From sequence record MW679410.1: DNA of 64,000 bases; one strand, given 5' to 3'. The notes under the pieces are model-generated. The model searched no databases. It had not been told where the DNA came from and saw nothing but the letters and a program-made list of their open reading frames with translations. Positions within the stretch are counted from its first letter, which is position 1; the number at the start of each line of letters is the position of its first letter. Positions 1,092 through 48,158 of this stretch are shown piece by piece. A program made the translations under genes and the position numbers. This DNA comes from Escherichia phage C6.

Positions 1092-1421
1092 TTAGAGTTG
1101 TACATCACTTCTGCAATATTCTAAAAATAATTTATCGTTGTCTACCGTATCCCAACGACGCCAAGATGGATTCCAGACCAAAGCGTTGTCACCACAATCA
1201 TTGAGCTTAAAATGGTCGTAGTACATAGCTATACGTCTAGTTTCGTCACCAGAGAACCCCAGTATAGGCTCGCCATGGGTGTGATACATATGATGGTGCA
1301 TTGAGAGGTCGCATTTGTAAAACATCTCACGTTTACCACGAACGAACAAGAAAGCTTGCCCATTCATATAGAATTCTTTATCTGTTTTCAAAAGATATTT
1401 GAATACTGAATCTTTATGCAT
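1092..1421 (-). CDS. hypothetical protein (His-rich segment HHHMYHTH)
   Basis: ORF track; start moved to ATG at 1421 preceded by GGAGG. Confidence 0.5.
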   Translation of the reverse strand: MHKDSVFKYLLKTDKEFYMNGQAFLFVRGKREMFYKCDLSMHHHMYHTHGEPILGFSGDETRRIAMYYDHFKLNDCGDNALVWNPSWRRWDTVDNDKLFLEYCRSDVQL

Positions 1422-1451: not shown

Positions 1452-1679
1452 TTATTTTCCTAACGAAACACGAGTAGGTTTTTTACCAAAATAGTCTTCA
1501 TAAGAACCATCTAAACGGCCTGCTTTAGACCGACAATACGAATCATACTTTTTGTAATAAGTCATCTCGGTATTATAACGTGGGTGTCTATCGGCCATAA
1601 TAATACTTAGTGGCCAACCTTTGGCATAATCGCGAAGACTGTTTATTTTACGAATGTATCGTTTTTTCAATTTTAGCAT
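1452..1679 (-). CDS. hypothetical basic small protein (75 aa)
   Basis: ORF track; ATG overlaps last codons of upstream paralog (ATGCTAA). Confidence 0.45.
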   Translation of the reverse strand: MLKLKKRYIRKINSLRDYAKGWPLSIIMADRHPRYNTEMTYYKKYDSYCRSKAGRLDGSYEDYFGKKPTRVSLGK

Positions 1680-1897
1680 GAGCTTGGGTACCAGATTTCA
1701 CCATCGGCACGAGCAACGAAGGTACGACCAGCTTCTTCACCATAACAAGAGCTGTTCAGCCAATCTTCGAGACGAACTTCGCCGTCATAATCGTCGAGCT
1801 CAACACCAAAATCCTGAGCAGAAGCCATATCTTTTACTTTCTTATACAGTGCAGCCAGTTCAAGTGCCGCTTTTTCTAATTCATTAATAGTAGTCAT
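1673..1897 (-). CDS. small acidic protein, paralog 5 of tandem family, C-terminus ...EIWYPSSC
   Basis: ORF track trimmed to ATG at 1897 (SD AAGGTG); C-terminal W-x-x-SS-C motif shared with four upstream genes. Confidence 0.6.
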   Translation of the reverse strand: MTTINELEKAALELAALYKKVKDMASAQDFGVELDDYDGEVRLEDWLNSSCYGEEAGRTFVARADGEIWYPSSC

Positions 1898-1907
1898 TTT
1901 TATCACC

Positions 1908-2117
1908 TTAGCAAGACATAGAGGATGTAAACCAGAAACCTTCACCTTCTGGAATACCGTAATCATCACGGACCCATTCGTAATCATCATATTCCGGACT
2001 AGAAGCTGGAATATATTCTTCGCCACCAGCGTGGAAGTGCTGACCTGTTTCGTCAGCCACGGACTGGCCTTTACGTACTAATTCGCGGATTTGTTTTTCA
2101 ATTTCATCAATAGTCAT
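1908..2117 (-). CDS. small acidic protein, paralog 4, C-terminus ...GFWFTSSMSC
   Basis: ORF track trimmed to ATG at 2117 (SD AAGGAA); conserved junction sequence with paralog 5. Confidence 0.6.
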   Translation of the reverse strand: MTIDEIEKQIRELVRKGQSVADETGQHFHAGGEEYIPASSPEYDDYEWVRDDYGIPEGEGFWFTSSMSC

Positions 2118-2127
2118 TTTTATTTCC

Positions 2128-2325
2128 TTAGCATTCGTAAGAGGAGGACACCCAAGAGGTACCACTAATAGTAATACAACCGTTATAAAGCGTGATATGT
2201 CGTTCTAGGTCACGAACACCATCGATATAGATATCAGCTTCTTCGCGTTCTTCTTTACAAATCTGGATAACGTTTTCAATAGCTGCCGCGGCAGTACGGA
2301 TTGCACAATCTAGTTCACGAGACAT
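2128..2325 (-). CDS. small acidic protein, paralog 3, C-terminus ...SWVSSSYEC
   Basis: ORF track; SD AAGGAA overlapping stop of paralog 2. Confidence 0.6.
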   Translation of the reverse strand: MSRELDCAIRTAAAAIENVIQICKEEREEADIYIDGVRDLERHITLYNGCITISGTSWVSSSYEC

Positions 2326-2334
2326 AATAATTCC

Positions 2335-2616
2335 TTAACATTCAGAAGAAGAGGATACCCATCCACCATTTTCTAGGCTGGTAGTGTAATCATGTTGGTT
2401 TACAATAGCGTACTGAGCTTCACCGTATTCTTCCCAGTGGGCAAGGTCGGCTTTCAGGGCGCCAGGAGAATAATAGTCACCGCCCATACCGCGAGCAGGG
2501 TATATATTAAAATGAGTCTCATATTTGTTAGCAATTTCCTCAGCACGACGAATAGCTTTATGGATATCATTTACTGCTTCAGCCAGTTCTTTATTTTTAC
2601 GGTAATCATTCATCAT
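2335..2616 (-). CDS. small acidic protein, paralog 2, C-terminus ...GGWVSSSSEC
   Basis: ORF track; SD AAGGAA overlapping stop of paralog 1. Confidence 0.6.
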   Translation of the reverse strand: MMNDYRKNKELAEAVNDIHKAIRRAEEIANKYETHFNIYPARGMGGDYYSPGALKADLAHWEEYGEAQYAIVNQHDYTTSLENGGWVSSSSEC

Positions 2617-2625
2617 AGCGTTTCC

Positions 2626-2916
2626 TTAGCACATTGCTGAAGAGGAGACCCAAGCACCAACTGTAACGACGCCGTTTTCAACTTCACCGCCGTTGTTTTC
2701 AATTTCATCTTTAAACCACTGGGAGCATTCATAACCGACAGGATAATATGTACGGCCTGAACCATAATCACCGGTACCGAATTGGATACCATACTTATCG
2801 GCAATAGCTTCACATTCATGTTCGATGGTATTCACTTTACGCAACAGGTCATAGATGGCTTTTTCTGCAGATTTTTCGTCGTTGTGTTCTGGGATTTCAA
2901 TTTCAATTTTATTCAT
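2626..2916 (-). CDS. small acidic protein, paralog 1, C-terminus ...GAWVSSSAMC
   Basis: ORF track; ATG overlaps stop of upstream membrane protein gene (ATGA). Confidence 0.6.
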   Translation of the reverse strand: MNKIEIEIPEHNDEKSAEKAIYDLLRKVNTIEHECEAIADKYGIQFGTGDYGSGRTYYPVGYECSQWFKDEIENNGGEVENGVVTVGAWVSSSAMC

Positions 2917-3266: not shown

Positions 3267-3795
3267 TTTGAACCTCTTTAGCGTATTCGCGACATTCAGC
3301 AATAAAACGATTAAGCTTCCGTTGTTGTTTTCGAATCTCTGATGTATACTCATTAGCCAAAATAATAAGCTCATCTTTATCGTAATTTTTAATATCCGAA
3401 TAACTCGGGCGGCGGTCGACCATACCAAAGTGGTCACCATTTTCTAACATCAAATAGCATACTAAATGGTAATCATCGTCAGCATCAACAAGCTGTTTAC
3501 AATCACTTGGTTCATTTAAAGCGTATACTGAATAGCATAATCCAGAGAATTCCACTCGTTGAATACCCAGATTTAAGTCAATAATTTCTAAAGCTTCTGC
3601 AAAAGAAAGGTCCTCAGCTAAAGCAAAGATAAAAGGTAATTTGCTAGTGTATCCACGGCTATTTGTTCGACTTAAGAAATCATTGGAATAACCTAAGTCT
3701 TGGCGAATTCTATAAAGAACTGAATTAGTTTCATGTGAAAGACCACTATGCTTAAACCAATCAATATTTGATATCAGGTCATCATATAAACTCAT
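3253..3795 (-). CDS. hypothetical protein (180 aa)
   Basis: ORF track; SD GGAGGAGAGG upstream of ATG at 3795. Confidence 0.6.
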   Translation of the reverse strand: MSLYDDLISNIDWFKHSGLSHETNSVLYRIRQDLGYSNDFLSRTNSRGYTSKLPFIFALAEDLSFAEALEIIDLNLGIQRVEFSGLCYSVYALNEPSDCKQLVDADDDYHLVCYLMLENGDHFGMVDRRPSYSDIKNYDKDELIILANEYTSEIRKQQRKLNRFIAECREYAKEVQNGTA

Positions 3796-3818
3796 AATAT
3801 TCTCCTCTCCTCCAAATA

Positions 3819-3836
3819 GGGAGACCGAAGTCTCCC
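3819..3836 (-). terminator. GC hairpin GGGAGACUUCGGUCUCCC (UUCG loop) followed by U-rich tract on minus strand
   Basis: Inverted repeat read directly; same hairpin recurs at 5335-5350 and 41705-41722. Confidence 0.5.
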
Positions 3837-3843
3837 GGTAACA

Positions 3844-4437
3844 TTACTTAAGTGAATTAATGTAGTCGTCGATATCAGCAGAAGTCGTATCCATTCCAAC
3901 TTGTGGGCCTTTAAATGTTTCTACACGCAGCAGGGTATCTTCAATATCAATCTTAGTCAATGCAGCGATTTCAACAACATCATCGGCAGTAGCAATACCA
4001 AGGGCAGCCATATTACGAGTTTCACGGATGTACTCGAGCTTAACGGCTAGTTCCTGACGAGAGTCATCAAGTTCCTTGACCTTCAGTTTAATTTCATTAC
4101 GCATTTCGATATAATCATCGGCTTTCTTACGAAGCTGAGTAGCTGTACGACGATAAAGGAGACCGAGTTTAGCATGTACCTGGACATCAGCGCCTTCGGC
4201 AATCAGTTTACGAATTTCACGTTCTTTAGAAGCAGCGAGCTGGTCTTTTTCATTAGCCAACGCACGAATACGTTTTTCTTCATTCACAGACTTAACATGA
4301 GCAGTCTGGAGTTCAGTGATTTTATCAATCAGGGTAGAAGCAGCTTTAGTATACTGGTCTTCGATTGACAGGTTCTGAGTCATTGCGGTGCCCAGTTTAG
4401 AACGAATGAATTCAACGAGTTTCTTTAAAGTGTTCAT
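3844..4437 (-). CDS. hypothetical coiled-coil-rich protein (197 aa)
   Basis: ORF track; heptad-like charged/hydrophobic pattern. Confidence 0.6.
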
Positions 4438-4969: not shown

Positions 4970-5233
4970 TTATTTCATATTATTGAAATAATCTTCCGCA
5001 TCAAAATCGTTATCATGATAAACTTTGGTAGACGATTTGGCGTAACCTTCAGCTGAGAACATATTAATCACAACTTTAATTGTATACCACTGTCCATCTT
5101 CATTACCCATTACTGCATAGGTTTCATACACTGGGTGTTCAGGACCGATAACCTTAATATCGTTAACTGTGGCACCAAATTCTTCCGGAACGCATTTCAT
5201 AAAGAAATTAAACAATTCACCATAATTATCCAT
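4970..5233 (-). CDS. hypothetical acidic protein (87 aa)
   Basis: ORF track start is GTG; moved to ATG at 5233 preceded by AAGGAG. Confidence 0.55.
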   Translation of the reverse strand: MDNYGELFNFFMKCVPEEFGATVNDIKVIGPEHPVYETYAVMGNEDGQWYTIKVVINMFSAEGYAKSSTKVYHDNDFDAEDYFNNMK

Positions 5234-5268
5234 TTTACTCTCCTTCACTCTGTTGTTTTGATAGGTCT

Positions 5269-5297
5269 ATAGTATCATGTTTAAAGTAGGTGTAAAC
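5269..5297 (-). promoter_or_regulatory. early-type promoter GTTTAC -N17- TACTAT
   Basis: Motif read on minus strand upstream of gene 4970..5233. Confidence 0.45.
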
Positions 5298-5334
5298 AAC
5301 TTTGTGAAATTATTTTTAGTCTAAACCCCCAAAA

Positions 5335-5350
5335 AGGAGACCGAAGTCTC
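5335..5350 (-). terminator. GC hairpin GGAGACUUCGGUCUCC + U5 on minus strand
   Basis: Inverted repeat followed by TTTTT immediately downstream of stop of gene 5357..5974. Confidence 0.55.
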
Positions 5351-5356
5351 CTTTCA

Positions 5357-5974
5357 TTATTTACGGGTCTTTTCGAACTGAGCGGCGTCACCAGCAAGGC
5401 GGCGTGCTTGACGAAGTTTGTTGTCGATTTCTTCGTGCATAGGCTGGGTATACTTAAGGCCTTCAACCGTCAGATAGAGACGATAAAGGTCTGGGGTATC
5501 CAGGTTGTTAATGTGCTGTCCGTTACGAAGAGCATTGAACTCTCGAACGAGTTGTTTAGTTTCAGATTCGATTTCCGAAACCAAAGAAGCCAGTTGATTA
5601 TATTTTTTAACTATAGTGCTGGTGTCAAACTTGATTTTAGGTTTAGGAGCTTCTTTTACCGGTTCGGCTTTAGGCGTTGGTTTCGGCGCTGCAACTTTGG
5701 TCTGGGCCACAGGTTTAGCAACAGGAGCTTTAGCTGGTTTAGCAGGCTTAGTAGCGCCGCCAGCTACGATATCTTTAAAAGCTTTGGAAGCTTTGTAATA
5801 TTCTTTCTGGTTACTAGTATCAAAACCATACATATCATAAACGTTTTTAAAGAACTCAGTACTAGTTTTAGCCCCAGAAATTTTATCATAAGCGGCTTGC
5901 CACATATCTTTAGTCATGCGCACGCCGGCTTCAGTCAGAATGTTTTCGTTCAAAAATTCATTGTAAGTTTTCAT
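5357..5974 (-). CDS. capsid internal protein, IPIII-like, with N-terminal capsid targeting sequence MKTYNEFLNE and Ala/Pro/Lys-rich low-complexity linker
   Basis: N-terminus matches the T4 internal-protein targeting sequence MKTYQEFIAE as recalled; position between tRNA cluster and early genes. Confidence 0.7.
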   Translation of the reverse strand: MKTYNEFLNENILTEAGVRMTKDMWQAAYDKISGAKTSTEFFKNVYDMYGFDTSNQKEYYKASKAFKDIVAGGATKPAKPAKAPVAKPVAQTKVAAPKPTPKAEPVKEAPKPKIKFDTSTIVKKYNQLASLVSEIESETKQLVREFNALRNGQHINNLDTPDLYRLYLTVEGLKYTQPMHEEIDNKLRQARRLAGDAAQFEKTRK

Positions 5975-6002
5975 TATTGTTTCCTGTGTTAATTAACTTA
6001 TC

Positions 6003-6010
6003 TATTTATA
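6003..6010 (-). promoter_or_regulatory. late promoter TATAAATA for IPIII-like gene
   Basis: Exact TATAAATA on minus strand about 29 nt upstream of ATG 5974. Confidence 0.5.
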
Positions 6011-6017
6011 CAAAAAA

Positions 6018-6039
6018 GGCCCAACCTTTCGGAAGGGCC
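6018..6039 (-). terminator. GC-rich hairpin followed by U6 on minus strand, downstream of tRNA cluster
   Basis: GGCCCAACCTTTCGGAAGGGCC with flanking A/T runs; near-identical copy at 48161-48188. Confidence 0.5.
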
Positions 6040-6217
6040 TTTAACCTAGGGTAACCTTGTCGGGGTTCCACCTGCTAGGCAAGTGTTCAAAAATAAGGTG
6101 CGCCGTTTCAGCTGTGAGATAAGGGACTTTAAGAGGAACTCATGTACGCCTTAAAGTCGGGTCTTATTCAGGGAACTTCAGTCCGACGACTTACCGGTAG
6201 CGACCCGGTTTCTTGTT

Positions 6218-6293
6218 TGGCCGAGACAGTAGGGATCGAACCTACGACCCAGGACTTAGAAGGTCCTTGCTCTTCCTTCTGAGCTATGCCTCG
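6218..6293 (-). tRNA. tRNA-Arg (anticodon TCT)
   Basis: Hand-folded cloverleaf: 7-bp acceptor stem, GCTC/GAGC D-stem, anticodon loop CTTCTAA, T-loop GGTTCGATCC, encoded CCA. Confidence 0.8.
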
Positions 6294-6297
6294 TATT

Positions 6298-6372
6298 TGG
6301 CGGACATGCATGGATTCGAACCATGGACCAATTGATTAACAGTCAACTGCTCTGCCACTGAGCTACACATCC
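6298..6372 (-). tRNA. tRNA-Asn (anticodon GTT)
   Basis: Anticodon loop CTGTTAA, T-loop GGTTCGAATCC, acceptor stem pairs with G-U wobbles, encoded CCA. Confidence 0.75.
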
Positions 6373-6376
6373 AAAT

Positions 6377-6450
6377 TGGTGGCCCTGGGTGGAATCGAAC
6401 CACCATCCAGCGATTATGAGTCGCTCGCTTGACCGTCCAGCTACAGGGCC
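6377..6450 (-). tRNA. tRNA with CAT anticodon (Met or lysidine-type Ile2)
   Basis: Perfect 7-bp acceptor stem GGCCCTG/CAGGGCC, anticodon loop CTCATAA, T-loop GGTTCGATTCC; anticodon arm resembles E. coli tRNA-Ile2 as recalled. Confidence 0.75.
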
Positions 6451-6455
6451 TTAAT

Positions 6456-6722
6456 TTAAATTACAAATCCAGCAGGAGCATTATCATCTTTAGCCATGTG
6501 CTGAATTGTATGATAAGTCATTTCTTCAGGAGCAACCAGATAAGCCGCAGCGTTAACTAGTGGAATTATTTTTGGTTTAGCGAATGTGCTATCGGCAATT
6601 GTCATAAAGGGCTCGCCGTCGGTCTCAACTTCGCCAAATTGACATTCATATGAAATAGAACAACGTTTGGTAGTTGTTGTCTTGGTTTCCGGGTCATAAA
6701 AAGCTAATTTTAATACTAACAT
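6456..6722 (-). CDS. hypothetical protein (88 aa)
   Basis: ORF track trimmed to ATG at 6722 with SD GAGGTG. Confidence 0.5.
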   Translation of the reverse strand: MLVLKLAFYDPETKTTTTKRCSISYECQFGEVETDGEPFMTIADSTFAKPKIIPLVNAAAYLVAPEEMTYHTIQHMAKDDNAPAGFVI

Positions 6723-6852
6723 AAACACCTCAAATAAAAATTAAGTAAAGTAAGTTTGATTAATAGACCTTGTCTATTATGAAAGGTTCTTTGAGGGAAG
6801 AACCTTTGGTAATAGAGGGTATTAATGATAGAGTAATAATATCACATAATTC

Positions 6853-7329
6853 TTAAAGCATATCAAGTGCTTTAACACTAGGTATTTGGATTTCTTCTTC
6901 AACGATGTACAGCTTAACATAAGAAATTACGCGCATGAAATCGCCGTCATATTCACAAGCCATACCAAGGAGCTCAGTAAGGGCTTCATTCAAGTAGTAT
7001 GCTTCTTCATCGTCATTCAACAAGGCTTCTAAGTCTTGAATACCTAGGACCTTATCCAAAAATTCAGGAGTCAACTGACCGGATTTTACACCAGATTCAA
7101 TGTGAGCAATAACCAAATGCTTAACTACGTCCCAGTCTTCGTTACCACATTTATTGTGGTTGTTGCAATGCGAACCATGGAAAAGTTCTAAGATGTATTT
7201 GTACTGTTGGATTTCCTGTTCTTCTACACCAAATACAGTCTGGGTTTTATAGTTATCACCATCATTTTCCCAAGTTTCGATTTCAAGAACATAACCTTTA
7301 GGAATAACTTGTCCAAATTTAATATTCAT
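6853..7329 (-). CDS. hypothetical acidic protein (158 aa)
   Basis: ORF track start is GTG; ATG at 7329 overlaps upstream stop (ATGA). Confidence 0.55.
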   Translation of the reverse strand: MNIKFGQVIPKGYVLEIETWENDGDNYKTQTVFGVEEQEIQQYKYILELFHGSHCNNHNKCGNEDWDVVKHLVIAHIESGVKSGQLTPEFLDKVLGIQDLEALLNDDEEAYYLNEALTELLGMACEYDGDFMRVISYVKLYIVEEEIQIPSVKALDML

Positions 7330-7616
7330 TGTGGCCACATATTAATGTAATCAAGTTTAATAGAAGCAATCTTCAAAGGATTTTTAAATATGTCATATTC
7401 GACCAATCCGTTTTCAGTTGCGGTATAAAAAGTAAAGTTAACAGAATTATAACGATGGCTGTTAACTTTGAGTTTAACATCACTTGAACTACGGCCAATA
7501 TTAACCTGTTGAACATCAAGCACAGCATCTTTGCCGTAATTTCGAATCAACAACTCGGCTGCAACCTGATCGGATTTATAGCCATTCTCTGGATTAGTAA
7601 CCTTAACGTATAGCAT
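7326..7616 (-). CDS. hypothetical protein (96 aa)
   Basis: ORF track; start abuts upstream stop (TAAATG). Confidence 0.5.
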   Translation of the reverse strand: MLYVKVTNPENGYKSDQVAAELLIRNYGKDAVLDVQQVNIGRSSSDVKLKVNSHRYNSVNFTFYTATENGLVEYDIFKNPLKIASIKLDYINMWPQ

Positions 7617-7997
7617 TTAACCCTCGTCTACAATTGTGTGGGTATTGGCATTAACAATTTGCCACCAGTCAAAACGATTAGACCCATATTGAGGCTTATT
7701 CTCGTTTTCTTTAATGATATCACGTAGTTCATCTTCAGTAGCAGCTTTTGCGATTAAGTCGGCATAGCCGCCACGAGGATAATAGTTATCACCTGCGAAA
7801 AGTAAAAAGTTTGTTTTGATATTATTGAACTCTTCAAGAGTAATAACCGTTCCGTTTGGTTGAACAATATCTATATAACTATATCCTAATTTCTGAGCTT
7901 CGGAAACCGCTTCAAGCAGGGTATCATGGGCCCATCCAATTTGACAATCGGGTTTTTCGGATGGATTAGCTTGGTAGTCCGCATACACTTTATACAT
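7617..7997 (-). CDS. hypothetical protein (126 aa)
   Basis: ORF track trimmed to ATG at 7997 (SD GGTGAG). Confidence 0.55.
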   Translation of the reverse strand: MYKVYADYQANPSEKPDCQIGWAHDTLLEAVSEAQKLGYSYIDIVQPNGTVITLEEFNNIKTNFLLFAGDNYYPRGGYADLIAKAATEDELRDIIKENENKPQYGSNRFDWWQIVNANTHTIVDEG

Positions 7998-7998
7998 T

Positions 7999-8184
7999 TT
8001 ACTCACCTTTAGAGATTTTATCCATAACAAAAGAGATTGAACCAATTAAAAATGCCACTACTAAAGAGATTATATTCTCGGAAGTTGAAAGCATATCGAG
8101 CATGAATCCTGCAAACATACTAAAGCCAAAAGCAGTAACGGCGGCCAGTGCAGTAACATTTCTAATTAATTCACAACGTTTCAT
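7999..8184 (-). CDS. small membrane protein (61 aa, two hydrophobic segments)
   Basis: ORF track start is TTG; ATG at 8184 preceded by GGAG. Confidence 0.5.
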   Translation of the reverse strand: MKRCELIRNVTALAAVTAFGFSMFAGFMLDMLSTSENIISLVVAFLIGSISFVMDKISKGE

Positions 8185-8220
8185 TTTATTCTCCAATCAC
8201 TCATTTGTTTTGATAGGGCT

Positions 8221-8250
8221 ATAGTACCATCACTAGAGCCCGTTGTAAAC
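8221..8250 (-). promoter_or_regulatory. early-type promoter GTTTAC -N18- TACTAT
   Basis: Motif on minus strand upstream of 7999..8184 operon. Confidence 0.45.
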
Positions 8251-8252
8251 AA

Positions 8253-8525
8253 TTATTTTAAATAAATTGCATACTTTTTATAACCAGCCGTTTCGTGACG
8301 CAGCCCTTTTTCATTAGCAAAACGTTCAATATTGTTAATTTGATTCCGGTCAAGCTCTGAAGTATCAAAAACAAAAAAATTTCGCTTATTGCCTAAAGTT
8401 ACGTGATTAGTCAAATCAATGTTATAGAGATGATTTATATCATCAATCATAGTCTTAACAGATTTGTTAATTTTTACTTCCTCATTAAGAATAGATTCAG
8501 AGATAAATTCTTGATAAGTTTTCAT
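8253..8525 (-). CDS. capsid internal protein (IPI-like) with capsid targeting sequence MKTYQEFISE
   Basis: N-terminal targeting-sequence match; located immediately before 57B as IPI is in T4 (recalled). Confidence 0.65.
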   Translation of the reverse strand: MKTYQEFISESILNEEVKINKSVKTMIDDINHLYNIDLTNHVTLGNKRNFFVFDTSELDRNQINNIERFANEKGLRHETAGYKKYAIYLK

Positions 8526-8526
8526 T

Positions 8527-8752
8527 TTATTCTACGCCAGCGGCTTTCAAAAGTTTTTTAAGATTGGCCGTGCCTTGAGCAGAAAATGTGACCTTGCCGT
8601 CTTTTTCGCCGATACTCCCGGTCAATTTAGCAAGTTTATCACTAGGGATTTTTTTAAAATCAGCCAATGTACCGTCAAAGGTTTTTGTAACAACTGGCAG
8701 TTGGTCTTCGTGTTTTTTTAGCTTCGGTAATAAATTCTTGATAAGTTTTCAT
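8527..8752 (-). pseudogene. internal-protein-like gene (CTS MKTYQEFITE) interrupted by frameshift at A7 homopolymer
   Basis: ATG at 8752 gives MKTYQEFITEAKK then premature stop; frame shifted by one nt is open to TAA at 8527. Removing one A from the 7-A run (plus-strand T7 at 8713-8719) restores a 74-aa ORF. Confidence 0.5.
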
Positions 8753-8789
8753 TTTGATTTCCGTTTGGTTAGTTTGTTTTGATAGGTCT

Positions 8790-8818
8790 ATAGTATCATG
8801 CCTATAGACCTTGTAAAC
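8790..8818 (-). promoter_or_regulatory. early-type promoter GTTTAC -N17- TACTAT
   Basis: Motif on minus strand upstream of internal-protein genes. Confidence 0.45.
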
Positions 8819-8825
8819 AACTTTT

Positions 8826-9503
<678 letters not shown>

Positions 9504-38198: not shown

Positions 38199-38626
38199 TG
38201 TTCCTTATCCCTGATGATTACGAATTAACTCTAGAAAGCGTAGAGGCCAAAATTCCAGAAGCACAGGGACGTTTTGCTGCTCTTTCTGAAGCGCTAGAGA
38301 AAAGCGATATAAATAATCTTGTAGAGAACATGATTGCTGAAGGCGATATCGAATGTGCTATCGCTCTTGGTTCTTTAAATGAATCAATGGCTCTTAACGA
38401 ATTTATCGTTAAACACGTTTCCTCTAAAGGTGTGCTTACTCGTACTAAAGATATTAAAACCCGTCAACGTAACGCATTCCAAACGACCGGGTTATCTAAA
38501 GCAAAGCGTCGTCAGATTGCTCGTAAAGCATCTAAAACCAAACGTGCTAATCCATCTACTCAAGTACGTGCCGAACGTAAGCGTAAGAAAGCCCGTTCTA
38601 AACGTAAAGCTTTTGGACTTAACTAA
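38198..38626 (+). CDS. 68: gp68 prohead core protein
   Basis: Size and synteny. Confidence 0.85.
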
Positions 38627-39261
38627 TGAAACCTGAATTGCTCATCGAACATTGGGGACAACCAGGTGAAATTATCGATGGGGTTCCTATGTTGGAATCT
38701 CATGATGGAAAAAATTCTGGGCTTGCTCCCGGCCTTTATATAGAAGGCATTTTCATGCAAGCAGAGGTAGTTAACCGTAATAAACGCCTTTACCCAAAAC
38801 CTATTTTGGAAAAAGCCGTTGCCGATTATATGGCGGAACAGGTTGCTACTAAACAAGCTTTAGGAGAATTAAACCACCCACCTCGTGCTAACGTTGACCC
38901 TATGCAAGCCGCTATTATTATTGAAGATATGTGGTGGAAAGGTAATGATGTTTATGGACGTGCACGTATCATCGAAGGTGACCATGGCCCAGGTGATAAA
39001 CTAGCTGCAAATATCCGAGCAGGTTGGGTTCCTGGTGTTAGTTCTCGTGGTCTTGGTTCTTTAACCGAAACCAACAAAGGATATAAGCGTGTAAACGAAG
39101 GTTATAAATTAACCGTCGGTGTTGATGCAGTATGGGGACCATCTGCTCCTGATGCTTATGTAACTCCAAAGCAAATTACAGAATCACAAACGGTAGAAAC
39201 CGATACCAGTGCCGATGACGCCTTTATGGCTCTCGCAGAGGCCATGAAAAAAGCGTTATAA
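38626..39261 (+). CDS. 21: gp21 prohead core scaffold / prohead protease
   Basis: Size and synteny. Confidence 0.9.
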   Translation: MKPELLIEHWGQPGEIIDGVPMLESHDGKNSGLAPGLYIEGIFMQAEVVNRNKRLYPKPILEKAVADYMAEQVATKQALGELNHPPRANVDPMQAAIIIEDMWWKGNDVYGRARIIEGDHGPGDKLAANIRAGWVPGVSSRGLGSLTETNKGYKRVNEGYKLTVGVDAVWGPSAPDAYVTPKQITESQTVETDTSADDAFMALAEAMKKAL

Positions 39262-39291: not shown

Positions 39292-40107
39292 ATGCTTAAA
39301 GAACAACTGATCGCCGAAGCACAGAATATTGATGCTTCCGTTGCTCTTGACAGTATTTTCGAATCAGTTAATATTTCTCCGGAAGCAAAAGAAACTTTCG
39401 GCACTGTATTCGAAGCTACCGTCAAGCAACACGCCGTGAAACTGGCTGAATCTCACATCGCTAAAATCGCTGAAAAAGCGGAAGAAGAAGTCGAGAAAAA
39501 TAAAGAAGAAGCTGAAGAAAAAGCCGATAAGAAAATCCAAGAAGCTGCCGGTCGTTTCCTTGACCACGTTGCTAAAGAATGGATGGCTGAAAACCAGCTG
39601 GCTGTTGATAAAGGTATTAAAGCCGAACTGTTCGAATCCATGTTGATGGGTATGAAAGAACTGTTTGTTGAACACAATGTGGTTGTTCCAGAAGAAGCAG
39701 TAGATGTTGTTGCTGAAATGGAAGAAGAGCTCCAAGAGCAGAAAGATGAAACCGCTCGTCTGTTCGAAGAAGTTGGTAAGCGCGATGCGTATATTAATTA
39801 CGTACAGCGTGAAGTTGCTGTTACGGAAGCAACTAAAGACCTGACTGAATCTCAAAAAGAAAAAGTTAGTTCTCTGGTAGAAGGCATGGATTATTCCGAT
39901 GCATTCGGTAAAAAAATTGGCGCTATTGTTGAAATGGTTAAAGGTCAGTCCGACGTTGAAAACCCAATCACCGAAGCCGCTATAAATAAAAATGTAGACG
40001 ATGCTGCGGCACTGAATTACATTTCAGAAGCAGTTGAAGAAAAAGGCGCTAAGCCTACCCTGTCCTTCGCGGACCTGTCTGCAATCGCAGCATCACGAAT
40101 TTCTTAA
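39292..40107 (+). CDS. 22: gp22 prohead core scaffolding protein
   Basis: Acidic coiled-coil; synteny. Confidence 0.9.
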   Translation: MLKEQLIAEAQNIDASVALDSIFESVNISPEAKETFGTVFEATVKQHAVKLAESHIAKIAEKAEEEVEKNKEEAEEKADKKIQEAAGRFLDHVAKEWMAENQLAVDKGIKAELFESMLMGMKELFVEHNVVVPEEAVDVVAEMEEELQEQKDETARLFEEVGKRDAYINYVQREVAVTEATKDLTESQKEKVSSLVEGMDYSDAFGKKIGAIVEMVKGQSDVENPITEAAINKNVDDAAALNYISEAVEEKGAKPTLSFADLSAIAASRIS

Positions 40108-41737: not shown

Positions 41738-42004
41738 CTATGCAATCTTAACTCGACGATTGATGATATCACGGAAGTCAATACGATTTTCTTGGATTTT
41801 CAGCCAGTTACCAGATTTGTCTTTGGTATGGGTAGAGTATTCACCGTTCCACCAGAAGTCAGTTTCATAAGCTAGGGCTTCGTATTTCTTAACCAATGCA
41901 TTAACTGCATTACCGTTAGGATTGGTACCAAATTTTTCTACCAGAGCTTTGATGTCTTTGTCAAGGTTAGAAAGTGTAGTACGGATAAAGTTTAATTTGT
42001 TCAT
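41738..42004 (-). CDS. hypothetical protein (88 aa) antisense-oriented between genes 23 and 24
   Basis: ORF track trimmed to ATG 42004 with GAGGAG SD; own early-type promoter upstream. Confidence 0.5.
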   Translation of the reverse strand: MNKLNFIRTTLSNLDKDIKALVEKFGTNPNGNAVNALVKKYEALAYETDFWWNGEYSTHTKDKSGNWLKIQENRIDFRDIINRRVKIA

Positions 42005-42033
42005 TTTTAATCTCCTCATGTTTTGATAGGTCT

Positions 42034-42063
42034 ATAGTAACACGACGCTTTTTGTGTGTAAAC
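42034..42063 (-). promoter_or_regulatory. early-type promoter GTTTAC -N18- TACTAT
   Basis: Motif on minus strand. Confidence 0.45.
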
Positions 42064-46437: not shown

Positions 46438-47934
46438 ATGCAAATTCAAGTACATTTTGATAATTTTAGTCATGTCCGTATTGAATGCGATGAATCTACA
46501 TTCTACGAACTCAGAGACTATTTTAGCTTTGAAGCTGATGGATATAAATTCAACCCTAAATTTCGTTATGGACAATGGGATGGTCGTATTCGTCTTCTGG
46601 ATTATAACCGTAAACTGCCTTATGGATTGGTTCCACAGATTAAAAAATTCGCTGAACAATTTGAATACTCTCTGTGGATTGACCCACGTATTCTTGAACA
46701 GGAAGATATTTCTCGTGAAGATTTTGACTCATGGGTTGCTTCTCAAGAAATTTATTCAGGGTCTACCAAGATTGAGCCTCATTGGTATCAGAATGAAGCC
46801 GTATACAACGGCCTGACAAAACGTCGCGCAATTCTGAATTTACCTACATCCGCAGGTAAATCATTAATCCAGGCACTCCTGAGTCGATATTACGTTGAGA
46901 ACTATGAAGGTAAAATCCTTATTCTGGTTCCTACTACTGCACTCGTTGACCAGATGATTAATGACTTCATTGATTATCGTCTGTTCCCTAAAGCAGCAAT
47001 GCTTGGTATTCGTTCAGGTACTGCTCGTGATTCTGATGCAATGATTTACGTTTCGACTTATCAAACCGCTATCAAGCAACCTAAAGAATGGTTCGCTCAG
47101 TTTGGTATGTTTATGAACGACGAATGCCATTTGGCCACAGGTAAATCTATTTCTACTATCATCGAAGGCCTAACCAACTGTATGTTTAAATTCGGTTTGT
47201 CCGGTTCTTTAAAAGATGGTAAAGCTAATTTAATGCAATATATGGGTTTGTTTGGTGATGTGTTTAAGCCGGTATCCACTTCACAGTTGATGGAAGAAGG
47301 ACAGGTTACTGACCTTAAAATCAACAGTATTTTCCTTCGATACCCAGACGAATTCACAGTTAAGATGAAAGGTAAAGATTACCAATCAGAAATTAAAGTC
47401 ATTACTAAGGCTACTCGTCGTAATAAATGGGTTGCTAATTTAGCTGTTAAACTCGCTAAGAAAGAAGAGAACGTATTCCTGATGTTTAAAAACATCGAAC
47501 ACGGTAAAACTCTTTTTGAAATGGTTAAAGAGCAACATAAAGAAGTTTATTATGTATCAGGTGAAGTTAATACCGAAACGCGTAATGCTCTGAAAGTAAT
47601 GGCGGAAAATGGTAAGGGTATTATTGTTGTGGCAAGTTACGGTGTGTTCTCTACCGGTATTTCCGTTAAGAACCTTCACCACGTTGTATTTGCCCATCCA
47701 GTAAAATCTAAAATCATTGTACTCCAGACAATTGGTCGTGTACTCCGTAAACATGCTTCTAAATCAACAGCACAAGTATGGGATATCATCGACGACATGG
47801 GTGTTAAGCCTAAATCAGCTACGGCTAAAAAGAAATATGTTCATTTGAACTACGCCCTCAAACACGCTTTAGAACGTATTCAACGTTATGCTGATGAGAA
47901 ATTTAATTACGTAATGAAACAGGTGGATTTATGA
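46438..47934 (+). CDS. uvsW: UvsW helicase
   Basis: Strong similarity to recalled T4 UvsW incl. helicase motifs (LPTSAGKS, DECH). Confidence 0.97.
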   Translation: MQIQVHFDNFSHVRIECDESTFYELRDYFSFEADGYKFNPKFRYGQWDGRIRLLDYNRKLPYGLVPQIKKFAEQFEYSLWIDPRILEQEDISREDFDSWVASQEIYSGSTKIEPHWYQNEAVYNGLTKRRAILNLPTSAGKSLIQALLSRYYVENYEGKILILVPTTALVDQMINDFIDYRLFPKAAMLGIRSGTARDSDAMIYVSTYQTAIKQPKEWFAQFGMFMNDECHLATGKSISTIIEGLTNCMFKFGLSGSLKDGKANLMQYMGLFGDVFKPVSTSQLMEEGQVTDLKINSIFLRYPDEFTVKMKGKDYQSEIKVITKATRRNKWVANLAVKLAKKEENVFLMFKNIEHGKTLFEMVKEQHKEVYYVSGEVNTETRNALKVMAENGKGIIVVASYGVFSTGISVKNLHHVVFAHPVKSKIIVLQTIGRVLRKHASKSTAQVWDIIDDMGVKPKSATAKKKYVHLNYALKHALERIQRYADEKFNYVMKQVDL

Positions 47935-48158
47935 AAACCTTTAAAGAAGTTATTCAAGAAGCATCTATTGAAAGCTTCATGTCTAAAATTAGTTCTTGTC
48001 AGACCATGGACGGTCTGGAGGAATTGGAGAAGTATTACAAAACTCGTAGTAAGGAAGCCGAACTTCGTGATTCGGATGATATTAGCGTGCGCGATGCATT
48101 GGCTGGTAAGAGAGCTGAATTGGAGTCGATGGACGACGAGGAAGAGGAAGATTTCTAA
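47931..48158 (+). CDS. uvsW.1: UvsW.1 small acidic protein
   Basis: Size and synteny. Confidence 0.85.
   Translation: MKTFKEVIQEASIESFMSKISSCQTMDGLEELEKYYKTRSKEAELRDSDDISVRDALAGKRAELESMDDEEEEDF

Follow-up and report, generated by a model that had tools for sequence, protein, structure and literature searches.

Putative capsid-targeted internal head protein genes at two loci of a JS98-like T4-type coliphage

Introduction

A host cell encounters the internal proteins before any other phage protein. In phage T4, the internal protein IPI* inhibits the restriction enzyme GmrSD, and infection of Escherichia coli ECOR17 requires IPIII. The T4 capsid-targeting sequence (CTS) is the decapeptide MKTYQEFIAE (PMC8442874), in which mutational work has assigned residues 4 and 7 to targeting and residues 8 and 10 to processing (PMC9026906). 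Translated T4 ipII and ipIII both start with this decapeptide, as in the literature, and the GenBank record of ipIII numbers the precursor from residue −10 to 183. The ipI locus is known to be polymorphic in T-even phages (PMC3012670), and an Ip4–Ip13 series goes back to Repoila et al. (1994), as cited in the same paper. Early promoter/stem-loop (PeSL) cassettes have been proposed as drivers of cassette shuffling in T4-type phages (Arbiol et al. 2010, PMC2839356). The internal-protein class, its leader, the polymorphism of the ipI locus and the Ip8 and Ip9 families are thus established knowledge. The present analysis concerns a stretch of 64,000 nucleotides from Escherichia phage C6 (MW679410.1), called the window below, and three minus-strand genes in it that share a CTS-like start: a gene for a 205-residue protein at 5357..5974, an Ip9-family gene at 8253..8525 and an ip8-family gene at 8527..8752.

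The window derives from a Dhakavirus, a JS98-like T4-type coliphage (JS98 group, Tevenvirinae). A megablast search with positions 5000..9300 gave 93–96% identity to the JS98-group phages IME281, UP19, JS98, IME08 and SHP1. The order of genes on the minus strand is e.6, e.8, the 205-residue gene, tRNA-Arg/Asn/Met, trna.2–trna.4, the two small genes, 57B, 57A, 1 and 3, and the T4 gene order around these loci is the same. Judged from sequence, the three genes are probably T4-type CTS internal head protein genes, with a probability of about 0.8. This assignment is very probable for the Ip9/ip8 pair and likely, with less assurance, for the family of the 205-residue protein. Its observed basis comprises the sequences themselves, the conservation of the leader, the locus, the promoters, the families of two of the genes, a frameshift, and the genes for the cognate protease and scaffold.

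Capsid-targeting leaders and head-assembly machinery

The initial annotation had drawn attention to the shared start MKTY(Q/N)EF and compared it with the targeting sequence of T4 internal proteins; the comparison agrees with the literature (PMC8442874), and the shared start is real in all three genes. The leaders are MKTYNEFLNE in the 205-residue protein, MKTYQEFISE in the 90-residue Ip9-family protein and MKTYQEFITE in the ip8-like frame, identical to MKTYQEFIAE at 7, 9 and 9 of the 10 positions, respectively. The four functionally mapped residues, Y4, F7, I/L8 and E10, are present in each of the three genes. A degenerate DNA pattern for MKTY(Q/N/K/H)EF has three exact matches in the window versus 0.07 expected with two mismatches allowed, and a relaxed CTS peptide pattern gives 0.03 matches per shuffled window; the shared start of the three genes is therefore not a product of chance. 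One other match of the leader DNA pattern, at 1371..1391, lies inside an open reading frame (ORF) and was taken as a chance occurrence.

Each leader ends in a motif of the type recognised by the prohead protease gp21 (LNE↓N, ISE↓S and ITE↓A), a match at the level of the motif from which cleavage is predicted. Second candidate gp21 sites follow the leader in the 205-residue protein (ILTE↓A) and in the 90-residue protein (ILNE↓E). The cognate protease and scaffold for such leaders are encoded in the same window. The gp21 gene is located at 38626..39261 on the plus strand (Peptidase_S77 at 6e-103; 89% identity to T4 gp21) and is followed by the gene of the scaffolding core protein gp22 at 39292..40107, also on the plus strand (T4_CASP at 6e-90; 77% identity to T4 gp22). 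The window also encodes gp67, gp68 and gp23, the last of which retains its cleavage context LTE↓AEIGG.

Targeting, cleavage, packaging and injection, as well as any DNA binding or anti-defence target, are inferred here by analogy with T4. As in T4, the 10-residue CTS would dock each protein into the gp22 core of the prohead, and gp21 would cut after Glu10, or possibly Glu15, within the (L/I)-x-E↓ motif. The basic mature proteins would then stay in the head with the DNA and enter the host on infection. The 205-residue protein, made late, would be one such basic internal protein, abundant in the head, packaged alongside the DNA and ejected together with it.

The 205-residue protein and its family

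The 205-residue gene (5357..5974, minus strand) is an intact ORF annotated as hypothetical and belongs to phrog_2280, a family of "unknown function". The layout of the protein comprises the leader, the second candidate site ILTE↓AG at residues 12–16, a helical N-domain (residues 20–72), a linker rich in Ala, Lys and Pro (residues 76–113) and a C-terminal helical hairpin (residues 119–204). The AlphaFold model has a pLDDT of 63 overall and of 82–88 in the N-domain, with a disordered spacer at about residues 74–113. The predicted mature product is 190–195 residues long; a cut after Glu10 would leave 195 residues with a mass of about 21.9 kDa and a pI of 9.6.

By tblastn, 143 phage records were found to carry the family; among the matches listed, all that are annotated bear the label hypothetical. 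Among the genera are Dhaka-, Mosig-, Kagamiyama-, Karam-, Marfa- and Winklervirus, and Kosakonia phages also have the gene. When 1.8 billion representatives were searched exhaustively with a profile of the family, 14 clusters were returned at E ≤ 0.001; the family members read have a CTS-like leader. The same search gave no link to any known function, and at least one weak match (P0042) is an unrelated repeat protein. The body of the protein falls to about 33% identity across the family, and the leader keeps Y/F at position 4, E/D at 6, F/I at 7, L/I/V at 8 and E at 10, in variants such as MYTFNEFLAE, MLKFKEFISE, MLNFKEFITE, MLKFKDILTE and MITFNEFLNE. The codon changes at the conserved leader positions are synonymous or conservative, which points to selection on the peptide and not on the DNA. 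A few residues further on, a second (I/L)-x-E↓(A/S) site is present in many members; E15 and A16 hardly vary across the alignment of the family. In some relatives (P0016, P0034 and P0041), the C-terminal module is replaced.

The low-complexity stretch that the initial annotation had quoted from this protein is present exactly as given (KPAKPAKAPVAKPVAQTKVAAPKPTPKAEPVKEAPKPK), at residues 76–113. Its codons occupy 5636..5749 on the minus strand. The linker has 38 residues, 76% of them Ala, Lys or Pro, with 10 Lys and Arg versus 2 Asp and Glu and a net charge of about +8; with a pLDDT of about 30, it is predicted to be disordered. Across the family, the composition is kept, and length and sequence vary. 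The description of this stretch as histone-H1-like is borne out in composition, which is basic and 76% A/K/P, and not in homology, there being no linker-histone or other significant domain match. Searches of Pfam, NCBIfam and PDB sequences with the 205-residue protein returned only sub-threshold low-complexity matches (DUF1627, Stm1_N, a TonB spacer and PsaE), of which the TonB spacer match had an E-value of 0.005 and 17 bits versus a cut-off of 315. The best E-value in a Foldseek search of the model against the PDB was 0.83; the weak top matches were DNA-binding domains, were not significant and were not used. Neither a linker-histone domain nor any other DNA-binding domain was detected with Pfam, NCBIfam, the PDB or Foldseek. 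The linker resembles the C-terminal tail of histone H1, TonB/TolA spacers and the linkers of E2 lipoyl domains in composition, predicted disorder and positive charge, with no homology to them. Segments rich in Ala, Lys and Pro act just as often as inert flexible spacers, and such a composition therefore does not imply DNA binding.

Late transcription unit of the 205-residue gene

A T4-type late promoter, TATAAATA, is found at 6003..6010 on the minus strand, 29 nt before the ATG of the 205-residue gene. The same spacing of 29 nt precedes gp22 and gp24, and this is the sole copy of the promoter sequence within the leftmost 12 kb. Just upstream of the promoter, a terminator-like hairpin with a U-run (6015..6042, minus strand) closes the tRNA/stable-RNA unit, and a second one (5333..5354, minus strand) lies directly past the stop codon of the gene. 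By these sequence signals, the 205-residue gene is a self-contained, single-gene late unit inside the early region. Both the leader and the late promoter are kept in 8/8 relatives examined, from seven genera. The promoter is exact in JS98, IME281, IME08, HX01 and PG7, with a 7/8 match in EcS1 and Marfa; the slot between the tRNA cluster and e.8 is also kept in EcS1, PG7 and Marfa.

The late-only promoter, of the kind used by head morphogenesis genes, also fits a protein that is targeted to the prohead core and acts in assembly only, as a core or scaffold accessory like gp67 and gp68, to be degraded or expelled before DNA packaging. The predicted C-terminal hairpin is coiled-coil-like, as in scaffolding proteins, and T4 IPIII itself alters the rate of head assembly (PMC9026906). 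Core proteins that are destroyed are, however, cut at several sites (PMC9026906), whereas the (L/I)-x-E motifs of the 205-residue protein are confined to its first 15 residues. With a pI of 9.6, the mature product would also be basic like the retained internal proteins, whereas the gp67 core protein encoded in the window has a strongly acidic tail. A purely assembly-related role of this sort is considered unlikely, and an internal protein retained with the DNA is the preferred reading. As to what such a protein would do, DNA-associated or assembly-related roles are the leading guesses. A fuller proposal, tentative and rather doubtful, is that phrog_2280 forms a genus-spanning class of T4-type internal proteins that has so far gone unrecognised, expressed late, docked by the CTS, trimmed by gp21 and held on the genome by the lysine-rich spacer; such a "linker-histone analogue" might condense the DNA or escort it into the cell, with a swappable C-terminal module acting on host targets.

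The upstream border of the late unit varies among close relatives. In JS98 and IME281, an extra gene of 184 residues (orf136, RB43 ORF-like) lies between the 205-residue gene and the tRNAs; it is missing from IME08 and from the window (5975..6217, as compared with 2545..3099 of the relatives' loci L001/L002), an indel at the border of the unit. Between tRNA-Arg and the late promoter, the stretch at about 6045..6217 on the minus strand partly aligns with T4 rnaD/rnaC, which encode the stable "species 2/1" RNAs; the matches include ATCACAGC(T/A)GAAACGGCGCACC and CACTTGCCT(A/T)GCAGGTGGAACCCC. An Rfam search of this stretch matched no family.

The Ip9 gene and the ipI locus

The Ip9-family internal head protein gene (8253..8525, minus strand) is intact and encodes 90 residues, with the leader region MKTYQEFISE↓SILNE↓E and a body from about residue 20. 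Its product matches the family phrog_7673 ("internal head protein") with an E-value of 7e-56 and shares 79% identity with Ip9 of phage RB15. Its (L/I)-x-E motifs, read by eye, occur only within the first 15 residues. The AlphaFold model (pLDDT 83) has a compact α-β-β-α-β-β body and an ill-defined leader; fold searches with it were uninformative. The proposal that this gene and its ip8-like neighbour encode internal proteins is well founded, since their families already bear such names (phrog_7673 and phrog_8765; Ip9 in RB15/K3 and ip8 in VR5) and the pair, flanked by trna.4 and 57B, occupies the slot of T4 ipI. The synteny trna.4, internal protein, 57B, 57A, 1, 3 is the same in T4.

The body of Ip9 (residues ~20–90) corresponds to an entire 72-residue protein of Kagunavirus siphophages, with 53% identity in tblastn and profile searches. 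The Kagunavirus protein starts MNKATA... and has no leader, so a construction from leader plus cargo is shown directly. In the Kagunavirus JSSK01 (locus L006, 3007..3225), its gene opens an operon that is divergent from an HTH regulator gene. The Ip9 body also corresponds to the last ~80 residues of a 755-residue Kuttervirus protein (Kuttervirus pertopsoe; locus L007, 991..3258), which starts MAIPSFLNFLEES; residues 1–654 of this protein are conserved across Ackermannviridae, and its C-terminus is variable. The Ip9-like region is one of several alternative C-terminal tips on the 755-residue protein, an arrangement that resembles a conserved carrier with variable cargo.

An early promoter (TTTACA-16-TACTAT) with a stem-loop is found upstream of the ip8/Ip9 pair at 8774..8817 on the minus strand; the PeSL-like 10-bp stem-loop spans the spacer and the −10 box. 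A second copy of this promoter/stem-loop cassette, downstream of Ip9 at 8205..8249 (minus strand), drives trna.4 and delimits the internal protein cassette on that side. The stem-loops of the two bracketing copies have z-scores of −6.0 and −3.3. A further early promoter cassette, TTTACA-16-TACTAT then AGACCTATCAAAACAA, lies downstream of the 205-residue gene at 5253..5296 (minus strand) and drives e.8. The TTTACA-16/17-TACTAT sites at 8817, 8249 and 5296 are followed by AG(A/C)CCTATCAAAACAA, and the cassette pattern TACTATAGNCCTATCAAAACAA occurs in four copies in the window versus 0 expected. An early sigma-70-type promoter with a stable stem-loop is thus repeated at the borders of accessory genes. 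These cassettes share with PeSL elements a strong sigma-70-type early promoter, a stable stem-loop between −35 and −10 and a position flanking non-essential genes in a hyperplastic region. PeSL elements were, however, described in RB49/phi1 with G/C tracts, whereas the stems in the window are GGTCTATAG/CTATAGACC.

T4 ipI has the same early promoter and stem-loop and no TATAAATA late promoter, so early-type transcription is no argument against a head protein. The locus resembles T4 ipI both in this promoter and in its slot (trna.4 on one side; 57B, 57A, 1 and 3 on the other), and its contents vary between close relatives. The JS98 ipI slot holds two other CTS ORFs, MKTYQEFIKE (97 residues) and the GTG-started MKSYKEFLTE (69 residues). 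This JS98 slot (locus L002, 5387..5969; EF469154, 72,190..72,839; 650 nt) had been left empty in the original annotation of that genome. In terms of sequence organisation, ip8/Ip9 is an exchangeable cassette at the ipI locus, placed like T4 ipI under an early promoter/stem-loop.

The near-identical promoter/stem-loop repeats that bound the cassette, the different genes at the JS98 locus and the documented PeSL-mediated shuffling in T4-type phages (PMC2839356) could also be taken to mean that the 5′ end which the genes have in common is left over from cassette recombination, or is a common translation-initiation region, and does not serve as a targeting signal here. Against this, the conservation is at the amino acid level, the codons differing in synonymous or conservative ways (TTT/TTC, GAA/GAG, ATT/ATC/TTG/TTA/CTC), and falls exactly on the positions mapped functionally in T4; moreover, the 205-residue gene lies at another locus under another class of promoter, and its leader is still kept across seven genera. 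Such a relic is highly improbable, and the shared start is better read as a targeting leader.

Gene 57B (8826..9281, minus strand), directly upstream of the internal protein pair, encodes Acb1, an anti-CBASS nuclease (PF23474, 1e-58), which RefSeq relatives label "RNA ligase". The internal protein cassette thus adjoins a known counter-defence gene.

The ip8-like gene and its frameshift

The third gene with the shared start is not as described in the initial annotation. Its start, MKTYQEFITE, is there, but 8527..8752 (minus strand), a frameshifted member of the ip8 family of internal virion proteins, is no open frame: its 226 nt are not a multiple of 3, and the frame stops after 25 codons, at 8675..8677. 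The rest of the homologous ip8 coding sequence is in the +1 frame, as far as 8527. The alignment places the difference in an A7 homopolymer run (8713..8719, minus strand), with one extra A in comparison with the A6 of IME281. Deleting one A restores a 74-residue ip8-like protein, which matches phrog_8765, "internal virion protein", at 5e-27 and shows an 85–99% match to genes annotated as ip8 or internal virion protein, including "ip8" in VR5. An intact, uninterrupted ip8 homologue is found in 107/107 related phage records. Besides IME281, two IMG/VR contigs have the A6 version; the A7 version was found neither in IMG/VR nor anywhere else.

Runs of A are slippery, and the A7 run might accordingly be a deliberate recoding site at which +1 ribosomal or transcriptional slippage restores the ip8 frame: in GCT AAA AAA ACA C, a +1 slip of tRNA-Lys from AAA to AAA would give the productive frame CAC GAA GAC. 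The 107 homologue records, however, all encode ip8 in one piece, the A7 version is missing from IMG/VR where the A6 version is present, and no conserved frameshift-stimulating feature surrounds the A7 site. A conserved recoding signal is very unlikely, and programmed slippage at this run is scarcely credible. A far simpler explanation is either a homopolymer sequencing error or a recent or strain-specific single-base null mutation, two cases that only the reads would separate.

The ATG of Ip9 lies 1 nt past the ip8 stop codon (TAA A ATG; 8525..8529, minus strand), with no obvious Shine-Dalgarno sequence. This junction suggests translational coupling. If the frameshift in ip8 is real, a premature stop about 150 nt upstream could reduce Ip9 synthesis.

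Comparison with T4 internal proteins

Among the closest described counterparts of the three proteins are T4 IPIII and IPII. The leaders agree at 7–9 of 10 residues, including all mapped positions, the (I/L)-x-E↓ motif is shared, and the protease and scaffold are the same. The predicted mature 205-residue product (195 residues, 21.9 kDa, pI 9.6) is also close to T4 IPIII* (183 residues, 20.4 kDa, pI 9.65). In contrast, there is no detectable sequence similarity to IPIII and IPII past about residue 25, and the PHROG families differ. In BLASTP, the 205-residue protein aligned with T4 IPIII over the leader only (E 0.008 over 25 residues), and it belongs to phrog_2280, not phrog_5341. Its gene lies between the tRNA cluster and e.8, whereas the T4 ipIII slot is between denV and e; it has the late promoter TATAAATA, whereas T4 ipIII and ipII have early-type GTTTAC promoters upstream. 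T4 IPI has a leader of the 19-residue type, whereas the leaders in the window are of the 10-residue IPII/IPIII type.

The bodies of the three proteins had been described as divergent, and homology searches of the mature portions agree with this: T4 IPI, IPII and IPIII align over the leaders only, and for Ip9 and ip8 this was the outcome with both IPI and IPII. The ip8/Ip9 bodies are unrelated to T4 IPI*, so the function of the latter as a GmrSD inhibitor is not transferable to them. An anti-defence role, by analogy with IPI* and IPIII, is the leading guess for Ip8 and Ip9.

Several observations weigh against the assignment of the three genes to this class. The motif alone is no proof, given that a protein not known as packaged has a CTS look-alike start in this sequence: UvsW.1 (47931..48158, plus strand; Pfam PF11637) starts MKTFKEVIQE↓AS, with residues 1–6 as in T4 IPI, and its Pfam domain begins only at residue 20. 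T4 UvsW.1 (locus L015, ~3700..3941) starts MLLEFKQFLYE↓AS and so conforms to the same pattern, F-x-x-F-L-x-E↓A. Past the leader, the family of the 205-residue protein is related neither in sequence nor in fold to T4 IPI, IPII or IPIII. Nor can the protein be a replacement of IPIII, a possibility that was ruled out: JS98 and other Dhakaviruses keep a true ipIII (85.6% identical in JS98). Since JS98 has both genes, the 205-residue protein is additional to IPIII. The ip8 copy, as sequenced, cannot yield a full-length protein. Finally, a literature search found no usable virion proteomes of Dhaka-, Mosig- or related genera, and no experimental report placing the three proteins or the 205-residue family in virions; internal proteins are not mentioned by Petrov et al. 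(2010).

Other features of the window

A 93-residue minus-strand ORF (41738..42019) is wedged between late genes 23 and 24. It is preceded by the fourth copy of the early promoter cassette (42018..42039, 1 mismatch) and looks like an accessory gene, expressed early, that was inserted into the head module. At 1673..2916 (minus strand), five tandem small ORFs of 117, 85, 65, 93 and 96 residues share the C-terminal motif W-[VFY]-[STP]-S-S-x(0-2)-C; their C-termini are GGWVSSSSEC, GAWVSSSAMC, FWFTSSMSC, TSWVSSSYEC and IWYPSSC. They form a tandem paralogue family with a terminal cysteine.

Significance

Much of what is described here is ordinary for a T4-type genome. Two points appear to be new as far as the databases and literature searched go: phrog_2280 as a late-expressed CTS family, and the Ip9 cargo as a free-standing siphophage protein. 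The case of Ip9 indicates that a leader of 10–20 residues can convert a free-standing phage protein into pre-loaded cargo. The 205-residue family, present in at least seven genera and never annotated, is a concrete target for virion proteomics and for screens of defence evasion. In view of the roles of IPI* and IPIII, the set of internal proteins carried by a therapeutic T4-like phage bears on its host range.

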